The translations under genes were made by a program, and so were the position numbers. A DNA stretch of 36,239 bases from Bacillota bacterium (GTDB lineage Bacteria; Bacillota; Limnochordia; JAAZLZ01): NCBI GenBank assembly GCA_012799075.1, contig JAAZLZ010000167.1, positions 1-36,239 on the forward strand, read 5' to 3'. The notes under the pieces were generated by a model. The model was not told the DNA's origin and made no database searches. It saw nothing but the letters and a program-made list of their open reading frames with translations. Shown one piece after another: positions 5,485 through 36,239 of this stretch; positions within the stretch are counted from its first letter, which is position 1; each line of letters starts with the position of its first letter.

Positions 5485-5526
5485 ATCTTCTCGCCTACCT
5501 AAAACACACACCGAGGAGTTTTGCTG

Positions 5527-9689: not shown

Positions 9690-9703
9690 AGCATGCCCAC
9701 CTT

Positions 9704-12046: not shown

Positions 12047-12100
12047 TGCTCAGACCCTCCAGAAGAATTCCCCGTCTATTGCCGGACACCTTCCATAGCG

Positions 12101-13318: not shown

Positions 13319-13534
13319 CCCTTCCTTGATTAGATAGTCATAATACCTATTCTCGCACCCGGGCATTGTTTCCTTGCGATATTAAACAATGCTGAAAAGG
13401 GAAAAAGGAAAGTTGGGGCTGCTGGGACCGAAAAATGTCATTTCGTAACGATAAATCGGCAGGAACCCCTGTTAGCGAAGCGAAATAAATAGAGCAAATG
13501 ATAAACGCACGTCTTTCAGAAAGGACTAATTGAA

Positions 13535-13753: not shown

Positions 13754-14767
13754 ATGAAGCATATGGGACGGTCCTTGATGTTCGCACTAGTTTTTGTCCT
13801 CGCTATCACTAGTCTCCATGGGGTGGTGCTTGGTGCCAAAAAATATGTTGTCAAATTTGCCCACGGGTCGGAAATCACCGAACCAACCCACGAGGCAGCA
13901 TTACTCATGGCCGAGCGGGTGGCCGAGCGGACAAATGGCCAGGTTGAAATTCAGGTGTTTCCCAGCAACCAATTAGGTTCGGAACGGGACATCTTTGAAG
14001 CCTGTAAACTGAATGCTATCCAGATGATTTTTGAATCCCCGGGGTCGATCGGTGTATTCCAGCCAGAAGTGGAGATCTTCAATGGACCATTCCTTTGGAA
14101 GGACTGGGAGGAAACCAAGCGGGTCATGCGGGGGCCCTTTGGCCAAGAACTGTATGCGAAGGTTCTACAAAATCATGGCCTGAGGGTGCTCGACCCCAAC
14201 TGGTACTGGGGCTGGCGGCATTTGACTACCAGGAATACCCCTGTTAGGGTGCCTGAGGATGTCAAAGGCCTAAAAGTGCGCTCCCCAAACATTCCGATTT
14301 TTATGGAAACCCTCAAGGCCATGGGTGCAAGCCCTACCCCCGTCGACTTTGGTGAAGTCTATACCGCACTGCAACAGGGACTAGTCGATGGTCAGGAAAA
14401 CCCGATCCCTACAATTTGGGCCAAGCGATTCTTTGAGGTGCAGAAATACGTTGTCTTGACGGGTCACATGCTGCAGTCAAACCACATCTTGATCAACGAT
14501 CGCTTCTTCCAGAGCATGCCCAAGGAGTTCCAGGCGATCCTCCAGGAAGAAGTCCTCGCCGCGGGCGAATACATGAGCACCCTTCAGCAGCAAGAAGAAG
14601 AAGAGCTCATCGCCAAGATCGAAGCTCAAGGTGTTACCATCATCCGGGATGTGGACCGGGAAACCTTCCGGAAGATTACCGAGGGTGTTTATGAGAAGTT
14701 CGAGGACAATTGGGGCAGGGGCCTGTACCAGAAACTTCGGCAGGCTATCTTGGACGCTCAAGAGTAA
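13754..14767 (+). CDS. dctP: TRAP transporter substrate-binding protein (DctP family)
   Basis: 337 aa with a signal peptide and the DctP-type motif ALQQGLVDGQENP. ATG follows GGGAGGG. Confidence 0.9.
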   Translation: MKHMGRSLMFALVFVLAITSLHGVVLGAKKYVVKFAHGSEITEPTHEAALLMAERVAERTNGQVEIQVFPSNQLGSERDIFEACKLNAIQMIFESPGSIGVFQPEVEIFNGPFLWKDWEETKRVMRGPFGQELYAKVLQNHGLRVLDPNWYWGWRHLTTRNTPVRVPEDVKGLKVRSPNIPIFMETLKAMGASPTPVDFGEVYTALQQGLVDGQENPIPTIWAKRFFEVQKYVVLTGHMLQSNHILINDRFFQSMPKEFQAILQEEVLAAGEYMSTLQQQEEEELIAKIEAQGVTIIRDVDRETFRKITEGVYEKFEDNWGRGLYQKLRQAILDAQE

Positions 14768-14784
14768 AGACTAGGTCGATAGGT

Positions 14785-14816
14785 AAGAGGGGAGGGGCAA
14801 CTACCTCTCCTCTTTT
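14785..14816 (+). terminator. Intra-operon attenuator/terminator hairpin after dctP
   Basis: Stem aagaggggagg / cctctcctctt with 1 mismatch, then tt. Confidence 0.45.
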
Positions 14817-14845
14817 CAACTTCCCCTGTGAAGGGAGTTTGGCCA

Positions 14846-15310
14846 ATGGGTGTACTTGCTTTTCTGGAGAGACTGATTGCCAAGGTCGAAGACTTATTGG
14901 TGGTGGGTGCCCTGGTTGTCTTGTCAGCCAGTGTGTTCTTGGGAGTAGTCTTTCGCTATGTGCTGAATGCTCCCCTTACCTGGACCGATGAAGTTGCGCT
15001 CCTTGGCTTTGTGTGGCTTGTATTCATAGGCGCTGGCACTTGTACCAGGACCAGGTCTCATATGGGTATTGAAATGCTTGTCCGGCGGCTGTCGGAGCAA
15101 AGGGCGCTGCGTCTTCAGACCATTGGGAACGTGATCGTCATGGTCATCCTGGGGGTGCTCGTCTACTTTGGCATTCAACACGCGTTGTATGCAGCCCACA
15201 GTCGGACCACTGTCCTGGGGATTCCCTGGACTTATATTTTCTTGTCCGTGCCCGTAGGTTCTGGGTTCATGTTCATCCACCTGCTTTATCAACTATGGGG
15301 TAAGGACTGA
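14846..15310 (+). CDS. dctQ: TRAP transporter small permease (DctQ family)
   Basis: 4-TM protein with PLTWTDEVA and HMGIEML motifs. ATG 14846 sits 8 nt after AAGGGAG, so the ORF-track GTG at 14828 is probably too early. Confidence 0.85.
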   Translation: MGVLAFLERLIAKVEDLLVVGALVVLSASVFLGVVFRYVLNAPLTWTDEVALLGFVWLVFIGAGTCTRTRSHMGIEMLVRRLSEQRALRLQTIGNVIVMVILGVLVYFGIQHALYAAHSRTTVLGIPWTYIFLSVPVGSGFMFIHLLYQLWGKD

Positions 15311-15352
15311 TTTCCCAGGCAAGCCTGGGCATTAGACCAGGAGGAGACATCC

Positions 15353-16633
15353 ATGAAGATCGTAATGATCATCTTTGTCCTATTTGCTTTTGCCTTAGCT
15401 AATATTCCCATTGCCTTCGCCATCATCGCCTCGACCCTCATCACCCTGTGGGTGTCCGACGTATCCATCAGCATGCAGATTCAGCGCATGGTGGCGGGGG
15501 TTAATTCTTTTCCTCTCCTTGCGGTTCCACTCTATATCCTTGCTGGGGTGCTGATGGAATGCTCCGGGATTACGCCGCGCCTTTTTCGGCTCGCCGATGC
15601 ACTGGCCGGCCATATCCGCGGGGGGCTGGGCCATGTAAATGTGGTGGCGAGCATGATCATGGCGGGCATGTCCGGGTCGGCTATGGCCGACTGCGCGGTG
15701 ACAAGCAAGATTTTTGTGCCCGAAATGGTCAGAGCGGGTTATCCTAGGCCCTTCGCTGCCGCCGTAACGGCAGCTTCCTCCATTATCGGGCCAATAATCC
15801 CGCCAAGCATCATTTTCGTTGTTTACGGGTATTTATCCGGAGTATCCGTGGGTCGGCTGTTCATTGCTGGTGCGATCCCGGGCATTCTGGTTGGATTATA
15901 CCAAATGGTCGCGGTTTACTTTATTGCCAAACAACAAGGCTTTGGGCAGCCGAGTCATCGATTTTCATGGTCCAGTCTTTGGACCGTAATTAAGCAAACC
16001 TGGGCAGCCCTCTTCCTGCCGCCCATCATCCTCGGAGGAATTCTCTCTGGTGCTTTCACTCCAACGGAGGCTGGGGGCATCGCGGTGGTCTACTCGCTGC
16101 TTGTCGGTGTTTTCCTCTACCGGCAGCTCGGGCTGAAAGATGTCATCAGGGCCCTAAAGGACACTGCCGCCAGCACTGCTGCCTTGATGTTTATCGTGGC
16201 TGCGGCGGCTCCCTTCGGATGGATCTTGGGTCTTGAACAGGTCCCCCAGCTAATCGCAAGGGTATTTACCTCCATATCCACGAATCCTGCCGTGATCCTG
16301 TTCTTGATCAACATCCTGTATCTGTTCTTAGGAACCTTTATGGACATTACACCTATCCAAATCATTACCATACCAATGCTGATGCCGATCATCAATCAAC
16401 TGGGGATTGATCCGATCCATTTCGGGGTTGTCTCGTCTATTGCTCTAATGATTGGCGCCATCACCCCGCCGGTGGGTACATTGATGTATTGCACCTGTGA
16501 GATTTCCAATGTATCCATTGAGGATTTCCTTAGGAGCGTTTGGCCCTTCTACTTGGCCCTTGTTGCCCTGTTGTTTACCGTAACGTACGTACCGGCGTTG
16601 ACCCTCTGGCTGCCTAGTGTGGTCTTCGGGTAA
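15353..16633 (+). CDS. dctM: TRAP transporter large permease (DctM family)
   Basis: 426 aa, multi-TM, with GGLGHVNVVASMIMAGMSGSAMAD and GPIIPPSI motifs. Confidence 0.9.
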   Translation: MKIVMIIFVLFAFALANIPIAFAIIASTLITLWVSDVSISMQIQRMVAGVNSFPLLAVPLYILAGVLMECSGITPRLFRLADALAGHIRGGLGHVNVVASMIMAGMSGSAMADCAVTSKIFVPEMVRAGYPRPFAAAVTAASSIIGPIIPPSIIFVVYGYLSGVSVGRLFIAGAIPGILVGLYQMVAVYFIAKQQGFGQPSHRFSWSSLWTVIKQTWAALFLPPIILGGILSGAFTPTEAGGIAVVYSLLVGVFLYRQLGLKDVIRALKDTAASTAALMFIVAAAAPFGWILGLEQVPQLIARVFTSISTNPAVILFLINILYLFLGTFMDITPIQIITIPMLMPIINQLGIDPIHFGVVSSIALMIGAITPPVGTLMYCTCEISNVSIEDFLRSVWPFYLALVALLFTVTYVPALTLWLPSVVFG

Positions 16634-17570: not shown

Positions 17571-17609
17571 ATAACTGTTGAACTTAGTAATAACGGGGAG
17601 GGGTTGGAT

Positions 17610-18893
17610 GTGTATTGTAACCAGTGCAGTCAGACGTTAAATGGCATCGCCTGCATTAAAGCTGGTGTTTGCGGCAAGAACGAGGATGTAAGCAGTCTCC
17701 AGGATAACTTGATTTATTCTTTAAAGGGAATCAGCGCGTATGCTTACCATGCACGGGAGTTGGGACATGTCGATGGAGAAATAGATGCCTTTCTAGCCGA
17801 GGCCCTCTACAGCACCCTGACCAACGTGAGCTTTGATGTGGAGCGGTTTGTGGACCTCAACCTGAAGGCGGGCCACATGACCATCAAGGCCATGGAACTT
17901 CTTAAGAAGGACCATGTGGAGGCTTTCGGACGAAATGAGCCGACTAGGGTGTCCACCGGAACGGCCAAGGGCCATGGAATCTTGGTCACAGGCCATGATC
18001 TAAAGGCCTTGTATGAGCTCTTGAAGCAAACGGAGGGCAAGGGGATCAACATCTATACCCATTCGGAAATGCTGCCCGCCCACGGATATCCGGTCCTCAA
18101 GGCCTTCCCCCACTTAAAGGGCAATCTGGGCGGCTCCTGGACGGATCAAAGGAAGCTCTTCGCCCAGTTTCCCGGAGCCATTCTCGGTACGTCCAACTGT
18201 GTACTAATACCTACAGATAAGTACCGGGATAGGATATTCACATTGGGCATTGCGGGGCTGCCGGGGGTTGCCGCCTTGGAAGGGTACGACTTTTCCCCCT
18301 TGATCGACAAGGCCCTCTCGTTGCCTGAACTTCCTGAGGAACCTGGTCCCATCATCACCACCGGCTTTGCCGACACCAACGTCTTGCCCTTGGCTGATAA
18401 GATCATCGATGCAGTCAAAGCTGGCAAGATCCGCCACTTCTTCCTGGTTGGCGGTTGTGATGCCCCCGGGCAGGGCGGAGAGTACTATCGGGAATTTGTC
18501 CGGCAGGCTCCTGCGGATACGGTGATTATGACCTTAGCCTGCGGCAAGTTCCGCTTCAACGATCTGGACCTTGGCGAAATTGACGGCATTCCCCGCTTGT
18601 TGGATCTAGGCCAGTGCAATGATGCCATTAGTGCTATCCGGATTGCCTCCGCTTTGGCCGATGCCTTCGCATGTGATGTCAACGATTTGCCCCTGTCCTT
18701 AGTTCTTTCCTGGATGGAACAGAAGGCGGTAGCCATTCTGATGGCCCTCTTTTCCCTGGGGCTTAAGGGGATCTATCTTGGACCCAAGCCGCCGGCCTGG
18801 ATTACCCCCGGGGTACTGGAAGTGCTGCAGAGGAACTTCGATCTTCGCTTGACCACAGAACCTGCCCGGGATATGGAAGCAATGCTGGGCTAA
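17610..18893 (+). CDS. hcp: Hybrid-cluster protein / hydroxylamine reductase, short form
   Basis: N-terminal YCNQCSQT...CIKAGVCGK cluster motif and C-terminal GGCD...ACGKFRF...GQCND. GTG 17610 sits 6 nt after GGGGAGGGG and gives the usual M-x-C-x-Q-C N-terminus. Confidence 0.85.
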   Translation: MYCNQCSQTLNGIACIKAGVCGKNEDVSSLQDNLIYSLKGISAYAYHARELGHVDGEIDAFLAEALYSTLTNVSFDVERFVDLNLKAGHMTIKAMELLKKDHVEAFGRNEPTRVSTGTAKGHGILVTGHDLKALYELLKQTEGKGINIYTHSEMLPAHGYPVLKAFPHLKGNLGGSWTDQRKLFAQFPGAILGTSNCVLIPTDKYRDRIFTLGIAGLPGVAALEGYDFSPLIDKALSLPELPEEPGPIITTGFADTNVLPLADKIIDAVKAGKIRHFFLVGGCDAPGQGGEYYREFVRQAPADTVIMTLACGKFRFNDLDLGEIDGIPRLLDLGQCNDAISAIRIASALADAFACDVNDLPLSLVLSWMEQKAVAILMALFSLGLKGIYLGPKPPAWITPGVLEVLQRNFDLRLTTEPARDMEAMLG

Positions 18894-21841: not shown

Positions 21842-22519
21842 ATGAAAAAGCCAGCACGGGAACGTCGGACTTCTTATGCCGATTGGGCATACAGGCAAAT
21901 CCGGGATGCCATCATTTGGTGGGATTTGCAGCCGCGGGAGATGATTTCGGAAAACCAGCTGGCCAAGAAGCTCCACATCAGTCGGACTCCTGTACGCGAG
22001 GCGCTGTTGCGTCTACAAAGAGAAGGTCTAGTTGAGATCAAGCCCCAGCGAGGGGCTTTTGTGTCTCCTATCCGGGTTAATGAGGTTCTCCAGGCCCGCT
22101 TGGTTCGAGAGGTCCTCGAAGTGACGGCAGTCAAAGAGGGATTTGATCGAATCGGGGCCGATGAATTGCTGGCGATGGAGAAGGCCCTCGACGATCAGGA
22201 GAAGGCTGCCCTAGCGCGAGACTTTCGCGCTTTCATTGATGCCGATGAGGGTTTCCATCAAGTCATTCTGGATGCTGCTCAGAACGAGAAGCTCAAGGGA
22301 GTTGTAGCCCAGATGCGGTTGCACCTTCTAAGGGTCAGGGTGTGGGCCTTGCCTGTAGCTGAACGCTTTCGATTGATGATTGAGGACCATAAATCCATTT
22401 ACGAGGCCTATCGGGAGCGAGACTTGGAGCTTGCCGTTGCTCGGATGGAGTCTCATTTGCGACGTACCAAAGAAACCTGTGCCACCATCGTGAATCAAAA
22501 TCCCTTTTTGTGTACTTAA
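21842..22519 (+). CDS. GntR-family transcriptional regulator (FadR/FCD subfamily)
   Basis: Winged-HTH region ISENQLAKKLHISRTPVREAL plus an all-helical C-terminal FCD-like domain. Confidence 0.85.
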   Translation: MKKPARERRTSYADWAYRQIRDAIIWWDLQPREMISENQLAKKLHISRTPVREALLRLQREGLVEIKPQRGAFVSPIRVNEVLQARLVREVLEVTAVKEGFDRIGADELLAMEKALDDQEKAALARDFRAFIDADEGFHQVILDAAQNEKLKGVVAQMRLHLLRVRVWALPVAERFRLMIEDHKSIYEAYRERDLELAVARMESHLRRTKETCATIVNQNPFLCT

Positions 22520-22617
22520 GATTTCCAATCCCACTTGAGAAAGGAGGTTCTCGGGAAGAAGCTGGGAACTTGGTTCTATTGGCATGTGTCAATCACGAAA
22601 AGAAAGGGTGTCAGCTA

Positions 22618-23607
22618 ATGAAGAAAACAGGATTAGCAATTGTCATCATGTCCCTTCTGGTGTGTATGTTGACCCTGCCAGCGGGTGCAGCTCAGGTGTG
22701 GAAGATGGGTCACATCATGCCCGCCGAAAGCCCCGTCGACATGGCGGCCCAAAAATTGGCTGAGCTGGTCAATGAAAGGACCGATGGCCGGATCAAGATC
22801 GAGATCTTCCCGGCTAGTCAGCTGGGCAGCCAGAATGATATGTATGAGCTCTTGCGGATGGGTGCCATGCAGATGATGTGGGCGGGGGACTATGTGGCCA
22901 TGCGGGCTGTGCCGGAATTCGAAGGCGTTCACTGGCCTTACATCTTCAAGAACGAGGATCACGCGGCGGCCTTCATGGAAACCCCCTTGGGTCAGACTTG
23001 GCGGGAAGAAACCCGCAAGCGGACCGGAATTAGGACCATCGGTTATGTGATCCGCAGTGCTCGTCACCTAACGACAAACAAGCCCGTTTATAGTGTCAAG
23101 GATGTCAAGGGCATGAAGCTGCGCAGCTCTGAGAATCCTGTTTACATCCAGGGGTTCGGCTCCATGGGCTTTGTGGTCACACCCATCGCCTTCGGCGAGC
23201 TGTTCACAGCCCTCCAGCAAGGTGTGGTGGAAGCCCAGGAAAACCCCTTCGACATGATCTATGGCCATGGACTATATGAAGTGCAAAAATACTTGGTACT
23301 TACCGGTCACCAGTACAGTCTATACCAGCTGCACATGAACGATAAGCTTTTCCAATCCATAAGTCCTGAAGACCAGGAAATCCTCATGCAATCAGTTGCG
23401 GATGCCTGCCAGTACGGCAACGAGTTGACCAAGGAGATGGAGGACGAGCTCTTTGCCAAGCTTAAGGCTACTGGCATCAAAGTCATCGGGCCTCCCGAGT
23501 TGGATGTGGACAGCTTCCGGAAAGCATCTGCCACCATTCCCCAGAACCTGCTTGATAAGTGGTGGCCAGGTTTTGTCGAGGCCGTTAGGGCGTGTGAACC
23601 CAAGTAA
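22618..23607 (+). CDS. dctP: TRAP transporter substrate-binding protein (DctP family)
   Basis: ATG 22618 gives a signal peptide, MKKTGLAIVIMSLL. Contains ALQQGVVEAQENP. The ORF-track start at 22510 overlaps the GntR gene and adds a non-signal extension. Confidence 0.9.
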   Translation: MKKTGLAIVIMSLLVCMLTLPAGAAQVWKMGHIMPAESPVDMAAQKLAELVNERTDGRIKIEIFPASQLGSQNDMYELLRMGAMQMMWAGDYVAMRAVPEFEGVHWPYIFKNEDHAAAFMETPLGQTWREETRKRTGIRTIGYVIRSARHLTTNKPVYSVKDVKGMKLRSSENPVYIQGFGSMGFVVTPIAFGELFTALQQGVVEAQENPFDMIYGHGLYEVQKYLVLTGHQYSLYQLHMNDKLFQSISPEDQEILMQSVADACQYGNELTKEMEDELFAKLKATGIKVIGPPELDVDSFRKASATIPQNLLDKWWPGFVEAVRACEPK

Positions 23608-23614
23608 GGACGAG

Positions 23615-23646
23615 GGCGGGGCGAAACCCGCCCCGCCACTGTTTTC
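23615..23646 (+). terminator. Intra-operon attenuator/terminator hairpin after dctP
   Basis: Perfect 9-bp stem ggcggggcg / cgccccgcc, then actgtttt. Confidence 0.5.
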
Positions 23647-23662
23647 CTGGGAGGTGAGTAGT

Positions 23663-24139
23663 ATGCTCAAGAAGTTCGATCGGGGCCTGGACGCGGTACT
23701 TACATTTTGCGGCGCCTTGTTGTTTTCTATTGCCCTGGTGATTACGGCTGTGCAGGTGTTCTTGCGCTATGCCATCAATCAGCCTTTGTTTTGGGCGGAA
23801 GAACTGGCTCGTCTTTGCTTTCTATGGATGATTTATGTAGGCTCGATCCTGGCCGTTCGTTATGATAAGCATATGGTCGTCGATATCTTCTATGAGACCC
23901 TCCCCCAGTGGGGAAAGCGCATACTGGATACGATAGTCTTGGTTGTTGTCGGTGTTTTCCTGATCGTGCTGACCAAAGAAGGGTATGGACTGGTATTGGC
24001 GGAGATGACCAGCGTAACCCCAGCCATGCAGATAAAGGTGGGCTATGTTTATTCCATCATCCCCTTGGCGGGGTTGGCGATGCTCTTTTACTTAGTATTT
24101 CCCTATAAGCCGGCCAAAACCAGCAGCCTTTCGGAATAG
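23663..24139 (+). CDS. dctQ: TRAP transporter small permease (DctQ family)
   Basis: ATG 23663 follows GGGAGGTGA. Contains PLFWAEELA and HMVVDIF motifs and 4 TM segments. Confidence 0.85.
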   Translation: MLKKFDRGLDAVLTFCGALLFSIALVITAVQVFLRYAINQPLFWAEELARLCFLWMIYVGSILAVRYDKHMVVDIFYETLPQWGKRILDTIVLVVVGVFLIVLTKEGYGLVLAEMTSVTPAMQIKVGYVYSIIPLAGLAMLFYLVFPYKPAKTSSLSE

Positions 24140-24151
24140 GGGGTGTAAACC

Positions 24152-25432
24152 TTGTCCGGACTATATCTTTTGCTTGGACTGTTAATCCTGCTTTTCTTGC
24201 GGGTGCCTATCGCCTTTGGTCTGGGAGCCGCATCCCTCGGGTATTTACTTGTCAGGGGGGGCATCCCCTTAGGGGTGGTGGCCCAGCGGATCAACGGCTC
24301 AATGAACTCCTTTGTGCTGCTGGCAGTTCCATTTTTCATGCTGGCAGGAAAGCTCATGAATACCGGGGGCATCACCAGGCGGATCTTCAATTTTGCCAAC
24401 GACTTGGTGGGACATATCCCCGGGGGCTTGGGACATGTCAATATTGTGGCCAGCCTGATCTTTGCTGGCATGTCGGGTTCCGCGGTGGCCGATGCCGCCG
24501 GGCTTGGGACCATCGAGATCAAGGCTATGAGGGATGCAGGCTTTGACGATGACTTCAGTGCCGCGGTGACGGCAGCCTCTTCGACCATTGGGCCAATTAT
24601 TCCGCCCAGCATTCCGATGGTTTTGTACGGCGTCATGGCTGAGGTATCCATCGGCAGGCTATTCGTTGGCGGCGTAATCCCAGGCATCTTGATGGCGGTC
24701 ACCCTAATGATCTTCACCTACTTCGTGGCCAAGCGAAGGGACTACCCCTGCAGAGAGAAAGTCGATCTCCGACGGCTGAGCAAGAGCTTTGCTGAAGCCT
24801 TTCCACCACTACTGGCACCGGTCATCATCGTCGGAGGCATCCTGACAGGGGTGTTTACACCCACCGAGGCCGCGGTGGTAGCCGTATTATATGCTTTCTG
24901 CCTTAGTTACTTCATCTACAGAGAACTGCCCCTCGAAGAGATCCCGGGGATGGTGAAAGAAGTGGTCATCAGCACCGCATCCATCATTCTCATCGTGGGC
25001 TGCGCTAGCCTGTTCGGCTGGATTCTCACCTGGGAGCGGGTACCCCAAGTACTAGCCCAGTCCATGTTCGGCATTTCCAACAATCCGACCGTTGTGATGT
25101 TGTTGATGGTCGTCTTCCTGCTCTTCGTGGGTACTTTCTCCGCAGCAACTGCTTCCCTGGTTGTCCTGGTTCCAATCTTCAAACCCTTGATGAGCCAAGT
25201 GGGCATCGACCCTGTTCACTGTGGGGTAGTGATGGTTCTGACTCTCATGATTGGGCTCTTGACTCCTCCTGTTGGCTCCGTGCTCTATGTTACTGCGGAG
25301 GTGGCAGGGATTTCCGTTGCCAGGATGATCAAAGCGGTGACCCCGTACCTGATTCCCCTGCTAATCACCGTTTTGATGCTGGTGTTTTTCCCGGGCCTGG
25401 TGACGTTTTTGCCCAATTTGCTACTAGGATAG
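24152..25432 (+). CDS. dctM: TRAP transporter large permease (DctM family)
   Basis: 426 aa and a paralogue of the 15353-16633 gene, sharing GGLGHVNIVASLIFAGMSGSAVAD and GPIIPPSI. Confidence 0.9.
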   Translation: MSGLYLLLGLLILLFLRVPIAFGLGAASLGYLLVRGGIPLGVVAQRINGSMNSFVLLAVPFFMLAGKLMNTGGITRRIFNFANDLVGHIPGGLGHVNIVASLIFAGMSGSAVADAAGLGTIEIKAMRDAGFDDDFSAAVTAASSTIGPIIPPSIPMVLYGVMAEVSIGRLFVGGVIPGILMAVTLMIFTYFVAKRRDYPCREKVDLRRLSKSFAEAFPPLLAPVIIVGGILTGVFTPTEAAVVAVLYAFCLSYFIYRELPLEEIPGMVKEVVISTASIILIVGCASLFGWILTWERVPQVLAQSMFGISNNPTVVMLLMVVFLLFVGTFSAATASLVVLVPIFKPLMSQVGIDPVHCGVVMVLTLMIGLLTPPVGSVLYVTAEVAGISVARMIKAVTPYLIPLLITVLMLVFFPGLVTFLPNLLLG

Positions 25433-25448: not shown

Positions 25449-26450
25449 TTGGCTAAACTTACACCAAGGGAGCGAGTCCTGACGACCCTGGCCGGGGGGA
25501 TTCCCGATCGGGTCCCCTGGATTGAGTCGGGCATCGATCCCGCAGTTGCGGAAAAGCTTTTGGGACGTCCCGTGTCTGTGCCGCCCCGGATCAGGATGGA
25601 CCCGGCACTCATGGATATGCTGAATCTAGACAACGTCGGGTTCAATCTTAAACCCCCGGATGTTGTCGAGCGCACTTTTTCCGGGGGTGTTGATTATGTG
25701 GGGGATGGCTTGATCAAAGGTTGGGATCAGCTGGAATTCTTGCTGGAGCAGCTTCCCGATCCCCATGATGAGAATCTCTACAAGCCCATCAATGACTACT
25801 TGAAACACCATAAGAGGGACTATGCAGCTGCCTGCGGCTTGCGAGCAGGGATGGCCAATACCTACCTTAGTATGGGCATCGAGACTTTTTCCCTGGCGTT
25901 GTACGATGACCGCAAGTTCGTCGAGACGGTGATGGACATCTTCAACGACTGGACCTTAGCCGTGGTGGAGCATGTCAATGAAATGGACTTTGATTATGTC
26001 ATCATTTCCGATGACTTAGCCCACAGCGCCGGGCCCTTGTTTTCACCCCAGGTCTTCCGGGAGCTTTTTGTTCCTCGCTACAAAAGGGTGGTTGAGAAAC
26101 TAAAAAAACCCTGGATTCTCCATACCGACGGGAACTTCTTGCCCCTGATCGATGATATGTTGCCCCTGGGCATGAGCGCCATCGGCAACCTGGAACCGGC
26201 GGCCGTTGATATTGTGCAGCTGAAGAAAGACTACGGCCATCGAGTGGGGTTGCTGGGGAATATCGATCTCCACTACACCTTGACCAGGGCAACGGAGGAG
26301 GAGGTCGAAGCCCAGGTGAAGCTGAGGATCTCCCAATTGGCCTCCGGAGGACGGTATCTACTGGCCAGTGAAAACTCTATTCCGTCATATGTTCGGCCGG
26401 AAAACCTCTTGGCCATGAGCCGGGCGGTGGAAAAGTACGGATACTACTGA
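25449..26450 (+). CDS. Uroporphyrinogen-decarboxylase (URO-D) family protein; function unknown
   Basis: 333 aa. N-terminus LTPRERVLTTLAGGIPDRVPW is typical of URO-D/MtaA-like proteins. It has HTDG (26121-26132) where methyltransferase-type members carry HxCG. TTG start follows AGGAAGGAGG, 16 nt after dctM. Confidence 0.7.
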   Translation: MAKLTPRERVLTTLAGGIPDRVPWIESGIDPAVAEKLLGRPVSVPPRIRMDPALMDMLNLDNVGFNLKPPDVVERTFSGGVDYVGDGLIKGWDQLEFLLEQLPDPHDENLYKPINDYLKHHKRDYAAACGLRAGMANTYLSMGIETFSLALYDDRKFVETVMDIFNDWTLAVVEHVNEMDFDYVIISDDLAHSAGPLFSPQVFRELFVPRYKRVVEKLKKPWILHTDGNFLPLIDDMLPLGMSAIGNLEPAAVDIVQLKKDYGHRVGLLGNIDLHYTLTRATEEEVEAQVKLRISQLASGGRYLLASENSIPSYVRPENLLAMSRAVEKYGYY

Positions 26451-28136: not shown

Positions 28137-29687
28137 TTGGAAGGAGGCCGCAACCGTTTTCGTGAAGCCCTTAGAACAGAATTCGTTGTAACCTGGGAGC
28201 TTGTTCCCGGAAGAGGAGCTTTCGGGAAGGCCCAAGAGGACATCTTTCAAGCTGTGGAAAGACTTGCCGGGGACGGGCGGGTGCATGCTTTGACCATAAC
28301 CGACAACCCCGGGGGCGATCCGGCGATGGCCGCCGATTACTTGGGAATGGAACTGGCAAGACAGGGAATCGAGGTCATCATTCACTTCACCTGCAAGGAC
28401 AAGAATCGCAGTCAAATCGAAAGCCAGCTCTATGCCCTCCACCGAGCTGGAGTGCATAACCTGCTGGTGATGAGCGGGGACTATCCGGCAAACGGCTGTC
28501 TGGGACGTCCCAAGCCGGTTTTCGACTTTGATCCGATCCACGTTCTGCGCATGATAGGCGAGATGAACGCGGGCTTTGAAGTCCCTGTCTTTGGTCCACC
28601 CGAGGTGCTGGCTCCGACGAACTTTTACGCGGGAGCTGCTGTATCGCCCTTCAAAAAAGAAGAGGGAGAGCAACTTGGCCAGTATTACAAGCTGAGGAAG
28701 AAAGTAGCGGCCGGCGCCCAGTTTATCATTACCCAGCTGGGGTACGATGCCCGCAAGTTCCATGAAGTGCTGCAGTTTGTGCGGAATGCCGGCTGGAACA
28801 TACCCCTCATCGGCAACATCTATGTACTTACCTATGGAATTGCTCGGCTGATGTATCAGAACCAATTGCCCGGGTGTGTGGTGACGGAAAAACTCATGGA
28901 AGAGCTTGTCCTGGAGAGACAAGGGGCCGACAAGGGGAAAGGCGCTCGCCTGCTGCGGGCGGCCAAGCTGTACGCCTTAATGAAGGGTATGGGCTATGCC
29001 GGTGTTCATATCGGAGGTCACGGTTTGAACTATGAAGATGTGATTTGCATCCTGGAAAAGGGGGAAGAATTAGTCCCCAATTGGCCCGAATTGGTGGGGG
29101 AGTTTGATTATCCCCAGGAGGACGGGTTTTACTACTTCCAGCGGGATGAAGCAACGGGGCTGAATACTCCCGAGCCGACAAACCGCAATGGAGCCTTGCC
29201 CGCCAAAGGCTTGGACAACCGGTTCTTCCGACTGCTTCATCACACCCTGTTCGATGAGCGAGGCATTTTCTATCATCCCATGCGTTTGTTTTCTAAAGTG
29301 GTCGATGGCACACGGTTAGAAGGACCTGTTACCTGGCTGGAGCACCTAATCAAGCTGATTAGCAACAACTGTCAACAGTGCGGGGACTGTGCCTTGTTTG
29401 ATCTTGCCTATTTATGTCCCATGTCCCAGTGCCCTAAGAATCAGCGCAACGGACCTTGCGGAGGAAGCTTTGAAGGTTGGTGTGAAGTTTACCCCAACAA
29501 GCGTCGCTGTCTCTATATTAGGGCCTATGAAAGGCTCAAGGCCTATGGGGAAGAGGACAACCTTGGGCGGTATGAGATACCTCCCTGCAACTGGAGTTTG
29601 CGCCACACTTCCTCCTGGTTTAATTTCTACCTTGGCCGGGACCATGGCAGCGGGGTATTGGATTTGACTGATGAAGGGAGAAGATAA
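28137..29687 (+). CDS. Methylenetetrahydrofolate reductase (MetF-like) fused to a MetV-like Cys-rich C-terminal domain
   Basis: 516 aa. The N-terminal ~300 aa are MTHFR-like (FVVTWELVPGRG, ALTITDNPGG, ITQLGYD). The C-terminal region has 8 Cys (29370-29510: CQQCGDC...LCPMSQCPKNQRNGPCGG...WCE...RRC), as in the MTHFR C-terminal/MetV domain. Confidence 0.8.
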   Translation: MEGGRNRFREALRTEFVVTWELVPGRGAFGKAQEDIFQAVERLAGDGRVHALTITDNPGGDPAMAADYLGMELARQGIEVIIHFTCKDKNRSQIESQLYALHRAGVHNLLVMSGDYPANGCLGRPKPVFDFDPIHVLRMIGEMNAGFEVPVFGPPEVLAPTNFYAGAAVSPFKKEEGEQLGQYYKLRKKVAAGAQFIITQLGYDARKFHEVLQFVRNAGWNIPLIGNIYVLTYGIARLMYQNQLPGCVVTEKLMEELVLERQGADKGKGARLLRAAKLYALMKGMGYAGVHIGGHGLNYEDVICILEKGEELVPNWPELVGEFDYPQEDGFYYFQRDEATGLNTPEPTNRNGALPAKGLDNRFFRLLHHTLFDERGIFYHPMRLFSKVVDGTRLEGPVTWLEHLIKLISNNCQQCGDCALFDLAYLCPMSQCPKNQRNGPCGGSFEGWCEVYPNKRRCLYIRAYERLKAYGEEDNLGRYEIPPCNWSLRHTSSWFNFYLGRDHGSGVLDLTDEGRR

Positions 29688-29688
29688 C

Positions 29689-30834
29689 GTGCAGGCAAGG
29701 GAAAGAGTATTAGCTGCGTTAAACCATCAAGAGCCCGATCGGGTGCCCTTCGATTTAGGTTCTTGCACCGGCACAAACATCGCCGTCAGGGCTTATCGGG
29801 CGTTAAGGGCCCACTTAGGGCTCCCCGACCGGGAGGTTCGCTTAAAAAGTCGAACGACCCAGCTGGCCCAGGTGGATGAGGATCTGTTACAAGCCTTATC
29901 CGTCGATGTTCGCGGGGTGATGCCACAGCCGCCGAGCAACTACCAAGCTGTCTTAGAAGAAGATGATGACTACTGGAAGCTGCGGGATGAATGGGGAATT
30001 GGCTGGCGGATGCCGAGAGTCGGTGGGTTCTACTTCGACATGTATGACCATCCCCTTGCCCATGAATACAACGTGGCCCTCGATGAATACAACTGGCCAA
30101 ATGGGAAGGATCCCGCCCGGATCGCAGGCCTGCGGGAACAGGCTATCGCCCACAGGGAGGCTGGCTATCTTGTTTGCTTCGGCGGTACCATCGGTAATGG
30201 GTTCTTGCATACAGGGACCCATTTGGAGGGCTTTGTCGACTTTTTCACCGACCTGGCCTTAGGGACCCCAAGGGCCGAGGGGATCTTAGACCGGGTCCTG
30301 GAAATCAAGCTTGATTTTTGGGGTCAGGTCCTGGATAATCTCGGGGACGTGGTGGATGTGGTCTGCGAACAAGACGACTTAGGCTCCCAGCGGGGTCCGT
30401 TCATTTCGCCGGATATGTACCGGAAGTACATTAAGCCCCGCCAGCAGATTCTCTTTGATTTCATCAAGAAGAAGGCCCCCGTTAAGCTTTACTTCCATTC
30501 CTGCGGCAGCGTCTATCAGTTCATCCCAGATCTCATCGAGGTAGGCGTCGATATCCTCAATCCTGTCCAAGTGAGTGCCGCGGAAATGTGCACCGATCGC
30601 CTTAAGAAGGAATTCGGCCGGGAGTTGGTGTTTTGGGGCGGTGGGGTGGATACGCAGGAAATCCTTCCCTATGGGACCCCCCAGCAGGTGAAAGATGAAG
30701 TAAAACGCCGCATCGATGATTTGGCTCCCGGCGGCGGCTTTGTGTTCACAACGGTCCACAACATCCAGGCGGACGTTCCCCCGGCCAATGTGATGGCCAT
30801 GTGGGAAGCCCTCCAGGAGCATGGCGTCTACTAA
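29689..30834 (+). CDS. URO-D family protein (methyltransferase-type HxCG variant); function unknown
   Basis: N-terminus RERVLAALNHQEPDRVPFDLGS and HSCG at 30496-30507. GTG 29689 sits 8 nt after AAGGGAG and 1 nt after the metF-like stop. ATG 29671 is an alternative start. Confidence 0.7.
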   Translation: MQARERVLAALNHQEPDRVPFDLGSCTGTNIAVRAYRALRAHLGLPDREVRLKSRTTQLAQVDEDLLQALSVDVRGVMPQPPSNYQAVLEEDDDYWKLRDEWGIGWRMPRVGGFYFDMYDHPLAHEYNVALDEYNWPNGKDPARIAGLREQAIAHREAGYLVCFGGTIGNGFLHTGTHLEGFVDFFTDLALGTPRAEGILDRVLEIKLDFWGQVLDNLGDVVDVVCEQDDLGSQRGPFISPDMYRKYIKPRQQILFDFIKKKAPVKLYFHSCGSVYQFIPDLIEVGVDILNPVQVSAAEMCTDRLKKEFGRELVFWGGGVDTQEILPYGTPQQVKDEVKRRIDDLAPGGGFVFTTVHNIQADVPPANVMAMWEALQEHGVY

Positions 30835-30852: not shown

Positions 30853-31287
30853 ATGATCAATCGGCTGGGGAGAGTCGCGGGCGGCTTGATTCCAGTGATG
30901 TTGGGTCTTGTCATGCTCAACATCCTCATCCGGCTCATCTTTGGCTATCCTTTGCTTTGGGCCGGTGAACTGACGAAGACCCTTCTCCTTTGGATGGTCT
31001 TCGCCGGCGGCGCCGCGGGAATTGTGGAGGGCAGCCATTTGCGGATTGACGCCCTTTATTCCTGTTTGTCCCAGCCCCTCCGGAAGACGGCTGATTGGGC
31101 TTCGTTCCTCGTTGGGGCGGCAACCCTCCTTTATTTCACCACCTCGGGTTGCCGCTTCTTCCTTCGCTACCGGGGGTTTCGAGCCTGGTTATACGTGATT
31201 CCCCCCTTGGGTGGACTGTTGCTGTTGGCAGGCGCAGTGGAGAATCTCCGCCACCGCCTCCGGAATAAGGTTATCCCCCCTGGGTAG
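30853..31287 (+). CDS. Solitary DctQ-like small membrane protein
   Basis: 144 aa and about 4 TM segments, with DctQ-type PLLWAGELT and HLRIDAL motifs. No adjacent DctM or DctP. Confidence 0.6.
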   Translation: MINRLGRVAGGLIPVMLGLVMLNILIRLIFGYPLLWAGELTKTLLLWMVFAGGAAGIVEGSHLRIDALYSCLSQPLRKTADWASFLVGAATLLYFTTSGCRFFLRYRGFRAWLYVIPPLGGLLLLAGAVENLRHRLRNKVIPPG

Positions 31288-31555
31288 AATCAACGACCCA
31301 GATCGTTTGCCCAAACTGGATGGGAACGCTAAGGTCATGGATACGCTGGCTGCCCTGGGCGATCATGACCTGTCCGCGGCCGAAATCGGCTTCCAGACTT
31401 TCCAGGGCAGGGCTCATCTCCTTTAGGACAGTCAAGAGGTCGTTCAGGGTCGAGCCCATCTCCAGGGAGATCTTGAACCCTTCTCGCCTGTATTTGACAT
31501 CCAAGAGATCCCGATGGGGAGAAAAGACCTTGACCGTGATTACTCCCGTTGTCAC
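31271..31555 (-). CDS. MoaD/ThiS-family beta-grasp protein with C-terminal Gly-Gly
   Basis: 94 aa ending ...IWVVDSTQGG-stop. The layout ITVKVF...GSTLNDLL...V..N is MoaD-like. GTG start sits 6-7 nt after GGAAGGAGGGG, which lies inside the end of the upstream gene. Confidence 0.6.
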   Translation of the reverse strand: MTTGVITVKVFSPHRDLLDVKYRREGFKISLEMGSTLNDLLTVLKEMSPALESLEADFGRGQVMIAQGSQRIHDLSVPIQFGQTIWVVDSTQGG

Positions 31556-31556
31556 T

Positions 31557-32456
31557 TTACACCCCTCCTTCCCGATTCAATTGGTCCAAAAGCATCATCT
31601 CCCGGTTCTCTACGGGCGGCATGCCTGGACCGTACAGGCAGCCTCCTGCACAGGCTAAAAGCTCAAGGACCCGGGGGCCTTCCTTGTCCGGTCGAAAAGC
31701 CGCCAGGTAGTCCCGGCAGCGGTCCAGCCCGGAAATGGTCATCGCCAAAAGACCGATCCGGGACGTAGGCTCATAATCACCGTCCATCATCTCCTCGGGA
31801 AGCAAATCCAGCTGAATGCCTTCATCCTGCAGCCAGGCCCATAGTTCGGTGAAGGTAAGGACGCCGTTCGCTGCTCCCTTCTCCGTGGCAGCTTCCCTTT
31901 TCTTTGCTTGGCAGGGTCCGATGAATACTACTTTGCCCCCAGGCCCCAGCTTTTTTCGCAGAACGCGGCTGTGGGCCACCATGGGTGAGGGTAGGGGAGC
32001 AAGGTAAGGTACAAGATGGGGAAAATCCCCTTGAATTAGAGCTGCCACCGCGGGGCAGGATGATGAAAACACCGGCCCGCCCGATTGTTCCACCAGGAGG
32101 ATGCGGCTTCGGACAGTATCCTCAAGGACGGAGATGGTCTCCTCAACCCGGCAAAAGCCCAGCCCCCGCAAAGCAGCAACGATTTTCAGCGGTTCCTTAG
32201 CCAAAACACTGTAGGAGGGGGCAAGACTTACCGCCACATCGTAATCATCCGTCAGCCAGGCTCGGATCTTCTCCAACTGACTTGGAGCCCGAATCAAGCC
32301 GTGGGGGCACGCAGCAACGCAATGACCATCGGAAAGGCACTTATCCTCCAGCACTTGAGGTGTCTCTCCTTGGAAAACCAGGGCCCCACAAGGACAAAAC
32401 GCGACGCATATCCGACAACCGCGACAAAGACTTGCGTTTCCTCTTATTTCAATCAA
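31557..32456 (-). CDS. [FeFe]-hydrogenase-like protein (ferredoxin domain plus shortened H-domain)
   Basis: 299 aa. Has CRGCRICVAFCP plus a non-canonical CLSDGHCVAACP. H-domain motifs are SSSCP (32052-32066), GPCQAKKRE (31893-31919) and ELLACAGGCLYGPG (31623-31664). TTG start follows GGGAGGA. Confidence 0.75.
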   Translation of the reverse strand: MIEIRGNASLCRGCRICVAFCPCGALVFQGETPQVLEDKCLSDGHCVAACPHGLIRAPSQLEKIRAWLTDDYDVAVSLAPSYSVLAKEPLKIVAALRGLGFCRVEETISVLEDTVRSRILLVEQSGGPVFSSSCPAVAALIQGDFPHLVPYLAPLPSPMVAHSRVLRKKLGPGGKVVFIGPCQAKKREAATEKGAANGVLTFTELWAWLQDEGIQLDLLPEEMMDGDYEPTSRIGLLAMTISGLDRCRDYLAAFRPDKEGPRVLELLACAGGCLYGPGMPPVENREMMLLDQLNREGGV

Positions 32457-32705
32457 GGCCGTCCTCCCGCATTGGTCTTTGCATACTATTTGGTTGCCAA
32501 CGACGATATTCCTGCGCTGTCAGAGTGGAGCTACCATTATTCTAGGAGTCTAGTCTGTCTTTTGCCACTATAGGAGGAAATTAGCTCATTGGTGGCGTAG
32601 TCGATCTTGTAGGGAATCCCATTGGTGTCCCGTCTAGCTCCGGGAGGTGTACTATTCTAGGCTAGGACGGTAGATGCAAGAGAATCATCCGGGGAGGTGG
32701 CTGTA

Positions 32706-34825: not shown

Positions 34826-36239
34826 CGTGGAAATTGAGGTGGCGGTAACCAGCCTCGTTGTGATAGATTGGTTTTGACGAACAACAATCTCACAACATGG
34901 AGGTACCGCCAATGTCAGGATACCACGAGTCCAAAGAACATTCCAGTAAAATGACGGAAAAAGAACGCTGTGAAAAGGCAAGAGAGCTGTGCATGGTCAT
35001 GTCCTTCGCCCGACTTCAAGATGCCCTCAAGGATGGAGTGGTAGCCTTGTGCACAGCGGCTGGTCTGACCGTTCTCCAAGCTATGATGCAAGAACAAGTT
35101 ATCGAATTGACCGGACCCAAAGGCAAGCACAATAAGGATAGAGACTGTTACCGTCACGGGACCGAGCCTTCCAAAGTTGTTCTGGGAGGCCGAAAGGTCC
35201 CGATTGAACGCCCCCGTGTCAGAACCATCGATGGGCATGAGGTTCCCCTGGAGATCTACGAGTTGGTGAAGGATGATAATTCTCTGTTGGAAAGGGCTAT
35301 GGAGTTGATGTTACATGGGCTCTCTAGTCGGAATTATAAGCAGGCGCTCGAGTGGGAATTGGATGGTGAGCCCGGCTCCACTTCCAAGAGCACTGTTAGC
35401 CGCAATTTCATCAAGGCGACTAGGAAAGAGGCAGAACGGCTTCTTCATCGACGTTTTGATGATTTAGACATCCCCATTGTCATGATCGACGGTGTTCGCT
35501 TTGCCGAATACCACGTAATTATTGCCATGGGAATTACGATTGACGGCACCAAACGCATATTGGGGCTGCGTATTGGAAGCGCTGAAAACGCTACCGTATG
35601 TAAGGATTTATTAACCGATCTGCAGGAGCGGGGCTTGCATGCCAGTGATGGCCTGCTTGCCATAATTGATGGGTCGAAGGCCCTGAGGAGCGCCCTCAAG
35701 TTGGTATTCGGGAATCGAGTATTGATCCAAAGGTGCCATGTCCATAAGCTGCAGAATGTCCTTGATTATCTCCCCAAGGAGCAAAAGCCCTGGGTCAAAC
35801 GGAAAATGAGACAGGCCTGGTCGATGGACGATGCCGGGGAGGCTCTTCAGGCCCTTAGAAGCCTTGCAACATCGCTAGGGTCCAATTATCCGGATGCAGC
35901 AGCCAGTCTCCGTGAAGGCTTAGAAGAAACCGTTACGGTGCTCAGGCTTCAAATCAGCGGTCTTCTTCGCCAAACCCTCCGTTCAACGAATGCTATTGAA
36001 TCGCTCAATTACCAGGTCAAAAGTCGTACCCGAAACGTAAAGAACTGGAAGAATGGGTCCATGGTCCAACGCTGGGTGGCGGCCGGTCTGCTAGATATCG
36101 AGACTTGTTTGCGTCGAGTGAAGGGCTTCCGTGATCTACCGATGCTGAAGTCAGAAGTCCGCCGGCTGACCGTTGGGATCACAGACGGGGCAGGAAACGC
36201 ATGGGAATCAGCGTGATTCTGCGCCACCGAAATTCCACG
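34826..36239 (+). mobile_element. IS256-family insertion sequence (1,414 bp to the window end)
   Basis: Imperfect terminal inverted repeats: cgtggaaattgaggtggcgg (34826-34845) against the reverse complement of 36220-36239, cgtggaatttcggtggcgc (16 of ~20 positions with one gap). They enclose a mutator-type transposase gene. Confidence 0.8.
34912..36216 (+). CDS. IS256-family (mutator-type) DDE transposase
   Basis: Typical family blocks: IVMIDGVRF, LLAIIDGSKAL, IQRCHVHKLQNV and STNAIESLN. ATG 34912 sits 7 nt after GGAGGT; ATG 34897 is an alternative start. Confidence 0.9.
   Translation: MSGYHESKEHSSKMTEKERCEKARELCMVMSFARLQDALKDGVVALCTAAGLTVLQAMMQEQVIELTGPKGKHNKDRDCYRHGTEPSKVVLGGRKVPIERPRVRTIDGHEVPLEIYELVKDDNSLLERAMELMLHGLSSRNYKQALEWELDGEPGSTSKSTVSRNFIKATRKEAERLLHRRFDDLDIPIVMIDGVRFAEYHVIIAMGITIDGTKRILGLRIGSAENATVCKDLLTDLQERGLHASDGLLAIIDGSKALRSALKLVFGNRVLIQRCHVHKLQNVLDYLPKEQKPWVKRKMRQAWSMDDAGEALQALRSLATSLGSNYPDAAASLREGLEETVTVLRLQISGLLRQTLRSTNAIESLNYQVKSRTRNVKNWKNGSMVQRWVAAGLLDIETCLRRVKGFRDLPMLKSEVRRLTVGITDGAGNAWESA

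Follow-up and report, generated by a model that had tools for sequence, protein, structure and literature searches.

The stretch of DNA that we analyzed (the window: 36,239 nucleotides, contig JAAZLZ010000167.1 of the Bacillota assembly GCA_012799075.1) encodes, on its minus strand, a short protein related to [FeFe]-hydrogenases and, directly after it, a small protein of the MoaD/ThiS family that ends in Gly-Gly (Table 1). We will call them the large and the small protein. They had been predicted to be a shortened hydrogenase-like protein and a Gly-Gly protein whose genes are translationally coupled, and both open reading frames (ORFs) are indeed where the original prediction put them. The two genes are a conserved, translationally coupled two-gene unit, and, judging from its sequence, the large protein belongs to a distinct short clade that branches among the sensory group C-type enzymes.

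At the junction of the two genes (GGAAGGAGGGGTGTAAAGTG), the TAA of the large gene is followed by 1 nt and then by the GTG of the small gene. The strong Shine-Dalgarno (SD) sequence that had been noticed in the last codons of the large gene is there, and the large gene has its own SD, GGGAGGA, 6 nt 5' of its TTG start. Within the window clade (the lineage that includes the window), the small gene has a ratio of nonsynonymous to synonymous substitutions (dN/dS) of 0.13-0.21, and the large gene has one of 0.19-0.25. Because of these low ratios, we consider both ORFs to be real genes under purifying selection, and the idea that the pair is a pseudogene remnant can be ruled out.

Table 1. Features of the gene pair and its surroundings. 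Positions are those of the window unless a locus is named.
Feature	Position	Strand	Basis or remark
Large gene, short [FeFe]-hydrogenase-like protein, 299 amino acids	31557..32456	minus	TTG start, TAA stop
N-terminal ferredoxin-like domain, residues 1-58	32283..32456	minus	Fer4/Fer4_7/Fer4_10 matches and sequence
Cys134 codon, SSSCP (= CpI C300, [4Fe-4S]H ligand)	32055..32057	minus	column invariant in alignments
Cys182 codon, GPCQAKK (= CpI C355)	31911..31913	minus	sequence; Cys and Lys invariant in the short clade
Residues ~237-250, 14 amino acids as compared with ~66 in group A (CpI ~415-480)	31704..31748	minus	phmmer alignment, Cys spacings
Cys269-Cys273 codons, ELLACAGGC (= CpI C499, C503)	31638..31652	minus	sequence and alignments; Leu at M497
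SD GGAAGGAGGGG for the small gene	31562..31572	minus	inside the last codons of the large gene
Small gene, MoaD/ThiS-family beta-grasp protein, 94 amino acids	31271..31555	minus	GTG start, ends ...TQGG-TAA
Gly93-Gly94 codons of the small gene	31274-31279	minus	then TAA
Divergent intergenic region, pair and iron-alcohol dehydrogenase gene	32457..32696		alignment of relatives
Lone DctQ-type TRAP small-permease gene, 144 amino acids	30853-31287	plus	no DctM after it
ArsR, ArsP, and ArsE-type thioredoxin genes	L001 1623-2596; L008 11152-13574; L010 2480-3016, 7139-7495; L049 3468-5636; L178 93-705

The original prediction proposed to check whether the pair is conserved across genomes, and it is. 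Five diverged lineages have the pair: the window clade (L001, L002-L004, L006, L007, and L013-L017), L005/L096 (a metagenome-assembled genome, or MAG, from Bacillota), L008/L097, L049 (a low-GC MAG from Thermosediminibacterales), and L178. In all five lineages, there is an SD inside the large gene, and the genes either overlap at stop and start (ATGA, GTGA, or longer) or are separated by a 1-nt gap. We collected 177 loci with 180 hydrogenase-like ORFs, of which 17 are of the short type. An ORF ending in Gly-Gly lies directly downstream of 16 of these 17, as compared with 0 of the 163 long hydrogenase ORFs. (The 17 short-type ORFs represent six lineages and not 17 independent cases.) Among the 80 best loci from a genome scan, 77 were of the HydS (sensory hydrogenase) type, and the pair appeared only in L016, L017, and L049. 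A metagenome scan with nine short-clade members gave, among the matches listed, long HydS-type genes only and no new short-type context. In L049, a hairpin followed by a run of Ts can be seen by eye 3' of the pair.

The large protein belongs to the H-domain superfamily: it matches Pfam's Fe_hyd_lg_C (PF02906) with E = 2.5e-35 and 122.7 bits (the cut-off is 22.1), over profile positions 3-245 of 245. The NCBIfam models for groups A and B score far under their cut-offs (76 as compared with 406 for TIGR02512 and 134 as compared with 450 for TIGR04105). An AlphaFold2 model that was built with 53 homologues has a pLDDT of 90.1 and a pTM of 0.90, and when we compared this model to PDB with Foldseek, the top 50 matches were all [FeFe]-hydrogenases (query TM-scores, or TMq, of 0.76-0.82). 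The N terminus matches Fer4, Fer4_7, and Fer4_10 in Pfam, with ferredoxin motifs at residues 6-59: C11xxC14xxC17xxxC21P and C40xxD43xxC46xxxC50P. The second motif had been described as a non-canonical Cx5Cx3CP, which we confirmed (C40-x5-C46-x3-C50-P). It can equally be read as CxxDxxCxxxCP, and the same Asp-for-Cys variant is found in the HydS-like protein P0005.

All four cysteines that ligate the H-cluster are present, as predicted: C134, C182, C269, and C273 are invariant in our alignments. The large protein also keeps the Lys at C355+3 (Lys185, the counterpart of K358) and the Ala-Pro-Ser and Ser-Pro around the H-cluster site. Other signature residues have changed. The residue before Cys134, at the C299 proton-relay position, is Ser, and the M353 position is Gly. 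Sensory [FeFe]-hydrogenases also replace C299, M353, and M497: these are Ala, Gly, and Ser in TmHydS, while TamHydS has Ser at M353 and Leu at M497 (PMC10055695; PMC8163306). The PAS-carrying HydS-like proteins that we aligned have the same SS[SA]CP, IGPCxAKK, and ELLACPGGC motifs. So the substitutions at C299, M353, and M497 place the large protein near groups C and D instead of setting it apart. The original prediction was right about the Ser, Gly, and Leu but had treated them as distinguishing traits, and we rejected the motif changes as a unique feature because they are ordinary hallmarks of groups C and D.

What does distinguish the large protein is what it has lost, along with its partner gene and its membership in the short clade. 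The spacing from C134 to C182 is 48 and from C182 to C269 is 87, as compared with 55 and 144 in group A. (The original prediction had given the second contrast as about 87 and about 144; the group A ORFs in the loci that we fetched mostly have 144.) When the protein is aligned by phmmer to 8a6t_A (HydA1 from T. kivui), query residue 236 matches chain residue 411 and query residue 251 matches chain residue 478. The short block that remains there (residues ~237-250) is the lowest-confidence part of the AlphaFold2 model. Three elements close the di-iron site in CpI: a plug (405-423), whose F417 touches the subcluster, a lid (437-453), and a lock (529-540) (PMC5954619). According to the alignment, the large protein has neither the lid nor the lock, and its plug is missing the C-terminal half, with F417 and the Gly-Gly helix. 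Much of the lid and lock is absent from groups B and C as well, but these groups have the F/Y417-Gly-Gly segment, which is lost only in the short proteins. Since the plug, lid, and lock are missing, the channel to the [4Fe-4S] site should be open. The C terminus is short as well: there are 30 residues after the C499 equivalent and 26 after C273, and there is no Cys in those 26. Neither PF04060 (the Cx2Cx4Cx16C cluster domain) nor PAS was matched in the large protein with Pfam. This C-terminal cluster domain is considered to be the unifying feature of groups C and D (PMC13104023; PMC8163306).

To define the short clade, we searched 1.84 billion representative proteins exhaustively by HMMER with a profile of the H-domain only. 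About 28 short proteins (207-323 amino acids; clusters at 50% identity) ranked above the HydS proteins of ~570 amino acids. About 28 clusters among 1.84 billion representatives means that the clade is rare. Between the cysteines of motifs 2 and 3, its proteins have a spacing of 79-99, as compared with 101-122 in most proteins of the group B/C type (the full range is 95-158) and 136-150 in group A. In the short clade, the tail after the third motif (L3) is at most 56 amino acids. The clade has the motifs APS[FY], GFxxVEET, PxWAR, and ELLACxGGCLxGPGM. Only the window clade (P0001-P0003) has the N-terminal ferredoxin domain; in lineages that lack it, small ferredoxin genes adjoin the short gene or lie near it. 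Three short proteins that resembled relatives (P0008, P0010, and P0012) were excluded as frameshifted fragments of ordinary PAS-containing HydS genes. Another protein in the HMMER list, P0063, ranked high only through its repeats: it has 4122 amino acids, with seven tandem group A HydA units (six of them near-identical, the seventh more diverged) and then flavodoxin and CysJ-like reductase domains. Most likely, it is either a eukaryotic polyprotein or an array of tandem genes that was read through.

In a neighbor-joining tree of 111 H-domains, the short proteins form one clade among the group C-type proteins, and groups B and A branch outside. This clade also takes in two longer proteins, P0072 and P0078. 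A clade that overlaps the short clade by at least 90% was recovered in 166 of 200 bootstraps. This is a distance tree that leaves out reference sequences for groups D-G, and we consider the short clade to be coherent and its exact position to be moderately supported. A large protein that clustered with ordinary hydrogenases that have known partners would have counted against the original prediction; it falls in its own short clade instead. Nor did we see either of the other two refuting outcomes, a pairing that related genomes do not conserve or a small protein that lacks the beta-grasp fold.

The small protein is a MoaD/SAMP1-like member of the MoaD/ThiS superfamily by its fold, its family profile, and its terminus. 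By itself, the window's small protein scores below the cut-offs for Pfam's ThiS (PF02597; 12.8 bits as compared with 22.5) and for TIGR01687 (14.9 as compared with 49.5). The partners in the other lineages score 31.2 (L178), 27.2 (L008), 22.9 (L049), and 22.0 bits (L005) against the same ThiS model, and they match NCBIfam's moaD_arch with E = 1e-7 to 7e-6, which is under the cut-off. A profile of seven family members matches the MoaD-like protein 1vjk from P. furiosus with E = 2.1e-7 over its full length, and the alignment ends on the Gly-Gly; other MoaD proteins and SAMP1 rank after 1vjk. The AlphaFold2 model is a beta-grasp fold (pLDDT 85.3), and its best Foldseek matches are the mycobacterial MoaD2 6jbz_B (TMq 0.75; TM-score normalized by the target, TMt, 0.83), SAMP1 (3po0), and E. 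coli MoaD (1fm0_D). The TM-scores against MoaD and SAMP1 structures are 0.73-0.83. So the model and the family profile agree with the prediction of a beta-grasp protein of the MoaD/ThiS type. The small protein has no Cys. Its C-terminal Gly-Gly is invariant among the aligned partners from four lineages, and we read it directly in the fifth (L178); it is kept although the partner lineages share only 19-24% identity.

We looked for genes that might explain the pair in its surroundings. When we scanned the 36 likely-gene ORFs of the window with Pfam, we found no hydE, hydF, or hydG, no NuoE/F, and no PAS, kinase, or phosphatase domain, and also no E1, MoaE, ThiG, JAB, or molybdenum/tungsten (Mo/W) enzyme. 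All of the genes that had been listed as missing are therefore absent from the window by Pfam. The only radical-SAM gene in the window is a glycyl-radical-enzyme activase. Similarly, MoaE, ThiG, and ThiF/MoeB were not found in the window or in the flanks of L001, L005, L006, L008, L013, L049, and L178. The true HydS loci that we fetched do have neighbors such as PAS, SpoIIE, and NuoE/F/HydA. We also compared both proteins to the PADLOC models of anti-phage defense, and neither was matched.

The neighbors that recur across lineages are of the ars type. An ArsP-type permease (PF03773) is in the flanks of the short gene in 5 of the 6 short-type lineages, as compared with 0 of 165 control loci (HydS-type; 1.5 Mb). 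A thioredoxin-like gene of the MTH895/ArsE family is in the flanks in three lineages (no control loci), and ArsR genes are in the flanks in three short-type lineages (two control loci). We did not see this cassette in the window, where a transposase interrupts the synteny on that side. The L008 pair is inside an ars cluster (ArsD, ArsA, ArsR, and ACR3), and directly after it (8942-10649) are a thioredoxin-like protein and a cysteine desulfurase (TIGR01977, 431 bits). This is the only neighborhood with an obvious sulfur-mobilizing enzyme. The L049 pair faces genes for a thioredoxin, a ferredoxin, and ArsR, with ArsP and SufC/SufBD beyond (SufC/SufBD are 2 kb away). Also, 130 nt upstream of this pair, on the same strand, is a gene (950-2326) for a 458-amino-acid, group-B-like [FeFe]-hydrogenase (SCCCP, spacing 110), which is the only case in which the pair adjoins a probable true hydrogenase. 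The L005 pair is among two AFOR genes and a molybdopterin oxidoreductase gene, and a second ThiS-like gene is next to an AFOR. In L010 (7139-8265), the short gene is translationally coupled to an upstream ArsR gene. There, the short gene comes after genes for DGC-domain proteins, a DGC-GcvH fusion, and a lipoate-protein ligase.

In the window itself, the pair is divergent from a gene pair for an iron-alcohol dehydrogenase and a class II aldolase, and it is convergent with the lone DctQ gene, two URO-D-type methyltransferase-like genes, and an MTHFR-like gene. Close relatives share this arrangement. The 3' end of the lone DctQ gene overlaps the 3' end of the small gene by 17 nt, and complete DctPQM sets are found elsewhere in the window (13754-16633 and 22510-25432). 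The MTHFR-like protein (516 amino acids) has a DUF5981 C-terminal domain and is coupled to a URO-D-family protein. A second URO-D-family gene and a DUF362 gene are near the MTHFR-like gene, and this cluster is kept beside the pair in relatives. The MTHFR-like, URO-D, and DUF362 genes (25449-26450 and 28137-30834) look like a methyl-transfer or demethylation cluster. At the edge of the window is a Mutator-family transposase (34897-36216, plus strand), which marks a synteny break: L001 and L013 have transketolase genes there.

Farther from the pair, the glycyl-radical-enzyme activase (11102-13366, minus strand; TIGR02494, 377 bits) adjoins a pyridoxal-phosphate enzyme related to DgaE and SelA, and we recognized no glycyl radical enzyme gene beside it. 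The window also encodes a hybrid-cluster (prismane) protein (17604-18893, plus strand) and a flavodiiron-type protein (5521-6720, plus strand), which combines an ODP metallo-beta-lactamase fold with flavodoxin. Genes for hybrid-cluster and flavodiiron proteins are typical of the responses of anaerobes to nitrosative and oxidative stress.

The divergent intergenic region presumably holds the promoter and the 5' leader of the pair. An 88-nt block within it (32540-32627) is 86-92% identical among three relatives, as compared with 74-88% for the rest of the intergenic region and 80-84% for coding DNA. This block includes TTTCCTCCT, which RNAalifold pairs with the SD of the large gene (GGGAGGA); with three sequences, support from covariation is negligible. 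On the opposite strand, the bases of TTTCCTCCT are a perfect AGGAGG followed by a mini-ORF of three codons. The block could be an operator, a leader, or an element that sequesters the SD. A promoter and terminator scan gave one weak sigma-70-like site (-35 at 32568, -10 ending at 32539), which is no better than chance. We also compared the DNA 5' of the pair to Rfam, both for the window and for seven related loci, and matched no family; a sub-threshold sodF small RNA and an unrelated lysine riboswitch in L010 were all that this search gave.

How does the pair compare to known systems? The nearest relatives of the large protein, at 30-40% identity, are HydS from group C (M2f; TmHydS from Thermotoga maritima) and group D (M2e; TamHydS from Thermoanaerobacter mathranii). 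They share the two-cluster N-terminal ferredoxin domain (in the window clade), GPCxAKK, and ELLACxGGC, as well as the replacement of C299 by Ser or Ala, of M353 by Gly (as in TmHydS), and of M497 by Leu (as in TamHydS). Unlike HydS, the large protein has neither Cx2Cx4Cx16C nor PAS, ~20 residues with F417/Y223 and the Gly-Gly helix are deleted, the window pair is not beside genes for a group A hydrogenase, a kinase, or a phosphatase, and there is a MoaD-like partner. The large protein differs from group A in having Ser, Gly, and Leu at C299, M353, and M497 and in having an incomplete plug, lid, and lock. By their published description, the group E enzymes of DPANN archaea (286 residues on average; PMC11216029) also have a small H-domain with several shortened loops. 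However, they are described as active, stand-alone, fermentative H2 producers from archaea (PMC11216029), while the present clade is bacterial and groups with group C-type proteins. An H-domain protein with a role other than H2 catalysis is Nar1/NARFL (CIAO3), which shares the fold and the cluster cysteines (PMC12621388). Unlike the large protein, Nar1 is eukaryotic, is a component of cytosolic Fe-S assembly, and has no ubiquitin-like partner.

On the side of the small protein, the pair resembles MoaD-MoaE, ThiS-ThiG, CysO-CysM, and TtuB-TtuA, in which a small Gly-Gly beta-grasp protein is encoded beside a dedicated partner enzyme that it acts inside. TtuA uses a [4Fe-4S] cluster to accept sulfur from TtuB. 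What differs is that the partner is an H-domain protein, which is unrelated to MoaE, ThiG, CysM, or TtuA, and that no E1 or pathway gene is linked. There are also MoaD-like genes in anaerobes that lie outside of the main cofactor operon and are linked to AOR (PMC1779556), and there is an AFOR near the pair in L005. But the AOR-linked MoaD is strictly beside AOR, often with MoeB or MoaE, while here the small gene is strictly beside the short H-domain gene, and no AOR genes were found in the window clade, L008, L049, or L178. Similarly, systems for conjugation by SAMP, E1, and JAB, or ubiquitin-like anti-phage systems, would involve an E1 or a JAB, and neither was found in any locus that we examined. 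So the pair does not fit any of the contexts that the original prediction named. The large protein is not a group A enzyme, the C-terminal cluster domain that groups C and D have in common is missing from it (PMC8163306; PMC13104023), and the pair is absent from the MoaD/ThiS neighborhoods that were catalogued in PMC1779556. That 2006 survey of the neighborhoods of prokaryotic ubiquitin-like proteins does not mention hydrogenases (PMC1779556), and the 2024 survey that defined groups E-G contains no occurrence of MoaD and, in the passages that we examined, mentions no ThiS-type partner (PMC11216029). A literature search found no paper that links an H-domain protein with ThiS or MoaD. The short proteins are a new subgroup of hydrogenase-like proteins, and a dedicated partner of this kind is unprecedented in the literature that we found.

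By analogy with these carrier pairs, we tentatively suggest, as something short of an even bet, that the two proteins pair up as a heterodimer, with the tail of the MoaD-like protein going into the open cluster site, and that sulfur or redox chemistry takes place during thiol or metalloid stress. The translational coupling suggests a stoichiometric complex, which would be 1:1. The retention of the Gly-Gly argues for chemistry at the C terminus: the tail would be activated by an E1-type enzyme that is encoded elsewhere, by adenylation and then thiocarboxylate formation or conjugation. MoaD is rarely found next to MoeB (PMC1779556), and an E1 that is encoded elsewhere would match this. The flexible tail would then enter the channel that the missing plug, lid, and lock leave open and would reach the [4Fe-4S] site. 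Electrons would arrive via the N-terminal ferredoxin domain or, in other lineages, from the separate small ferredoxins. The complex would perform sulfur or redox chemistry on the C terminus of the carrier, and one option is the reduction or transfer of sulfur from an acyl-persulfide or a thiocarboxylate. For the sulfur step, there are analogies in TtuB at the cluster of TtuA and in MoaD within MoaE. Because ArsR, the ArsP permease, and ArsE-type thioredoxin recur as neighbors, a role in thiol or metalloid stress seems to be suggested, rather than a role in energy metabolism. We are more doubtful about the full version of this idea, in which the H-domain has been repurposed so that its exposed [4Fe-4S] site acts on the Gly-Gly of a ubiquitin-like carrier as part of an ArsR-controlled response to metalloid or sulfur stress.

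Several observations weigh against a sulfur-carrier role. We have genomic context for only 6 of the ~28 short-clade clusters, and one short-clade lineage, L010 (P0031/P0064), has no partner gene. There was no E1, rhodanese, MoaE/ThiG-type acceptor, or JAB gene in any neighborhood that we examined, so the sulfur-carrier cycle is an assumption on our part. The residues that hold the di-iron subcluster (the Lys at C355+3, Ala-Pro-Ser, and Ser-Pro) are still conserved, so the large protein might bind a complete H-cluster. The flanks differ by lineage, with sugar, aldehyde, and methyl-transfer genes in the window clade, W/Mo enzymes in L005, and ars genes in L008. Finally, the short clade was strictly monophyletic in just 67 of 200 bootstraps.

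If the H-cluster is complete, then the large protein might be a minimal H2 sensor or a low-activity hydrogenase, with the small protein either closing the di-iron site in trans or replacing the PAS output. The clade does branch among group C-type sensory hydrogenases, it combines their substitutions at C299, M353, and M497 with the Lys, Ala-Pro-Ser, and Ser-Pro that contact the CN ligands (PMC10055695), and in L049 the pair comes directly after a group-B-like hydrogenase gene. The ultraminimal group E enzymes (286 residues on average) are reported to be active (PMC11216029). We nevertheless consider this explanation to be unlikely, because the segment with F417/Y223 and the Gly-Gly helix, which groups A, B, and C all kept, has been lost, and because in the other lineages there is no hydEFG, group A hydrogenase, kinase, or phosphatase near the pair. 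Also, a beta-grasp subunit that was purely structural or that only passed on a signal would have no reason to keep its Gly-Gly at ~20% identity. The opposite possibility is that the di-iron site is gone and that the large protein carries or repairs Fe-S clusters somewhat as Nar1 does, with a labile [4Fe-4S] only and with the thiocarboxylate of the MoaD-like protein supplying sulfide during metalloid or oxidative stress. Nar1 is an H-domain protein that works as an Fe-S carrier without a di-iron site (PMC12621388). The predicted open cluster site, the recurring ars-type neighbors, the cysteine desulfurase after the pair in L008, and the SufC/SufBD genes 2 kb away in L049 would all suit such a role. 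But Suf and the desulfurase are neighbors in just one lineage each, and no scaffold or target proteins are linked. We know of no case of a thiocarboxylate being the sulfur donor for Fe-S assembly, and this explanation strikes us as quite improbable.

The most mundane explanation is that the small gene is an ordinary MoaD for the Mo/W cofactor that happens to be next to the degenerate remnant of a hydrogenase. JGI's name for the small protein is "molybdopterin converting factor small subunit," and its best family matches are of the MoaD type. MoaD genes that are linked to AOR are known (PMC1779556), and the L005 pair lies among two AFOR genes and a molybdopterin oxidoreductase gene; however, L005 has its second ThiS-like gene beside its AFOR. 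A chance neighbor would not be expected to be exclusive to the short clade (16 of 17 ORFs as compared with 0 of 163) and to be translationally coupled in five lineages. There is no MoaE, MoaA, or MoeB nearby and no Mo/W enzyme in the window, and, given the purifying selection on the large gene, it is not a remnant. So we think that this explanation is very improbable.

The current classification of [FeFe]-hydrogenases comprises groups A-G, and both the roles of its non-catalytic groups and the way in which "sensory" enzymes transfer their signals are open questions (PMC13104023). The short clade is a kind of natural experiment: a group-C-like H-domain has been stripped down, has remained under selection, and has been joined to a MoaD-type protein. 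The pair may use the hydrogenase scaffold for something other than ordinary hydrogen chemistry. If the small protein does enter or close the cluster site, then the H-domain scaffold would be shown to work in a new way, and ubiquitin-like sulfur carriers would gain a new client. A complex that still binds an H-cluster would have one of the smallest hydrogenase cores in bacteria and a lid that can be removed, and this would interest enzyme engineers. And if the H-domain has been repurposed to act on the carrier's Gly-Gly, then the [FeFe]-hydrogenase fold would for the first time be tied functionally to ThiS/MoaD/ubiquitin-like sulfur transfer. The association with ArsR, ArsP, and ArsE-type thioredoxin also points to an unstudied component of the responses of anaerobes to metalloid and thiol stress.

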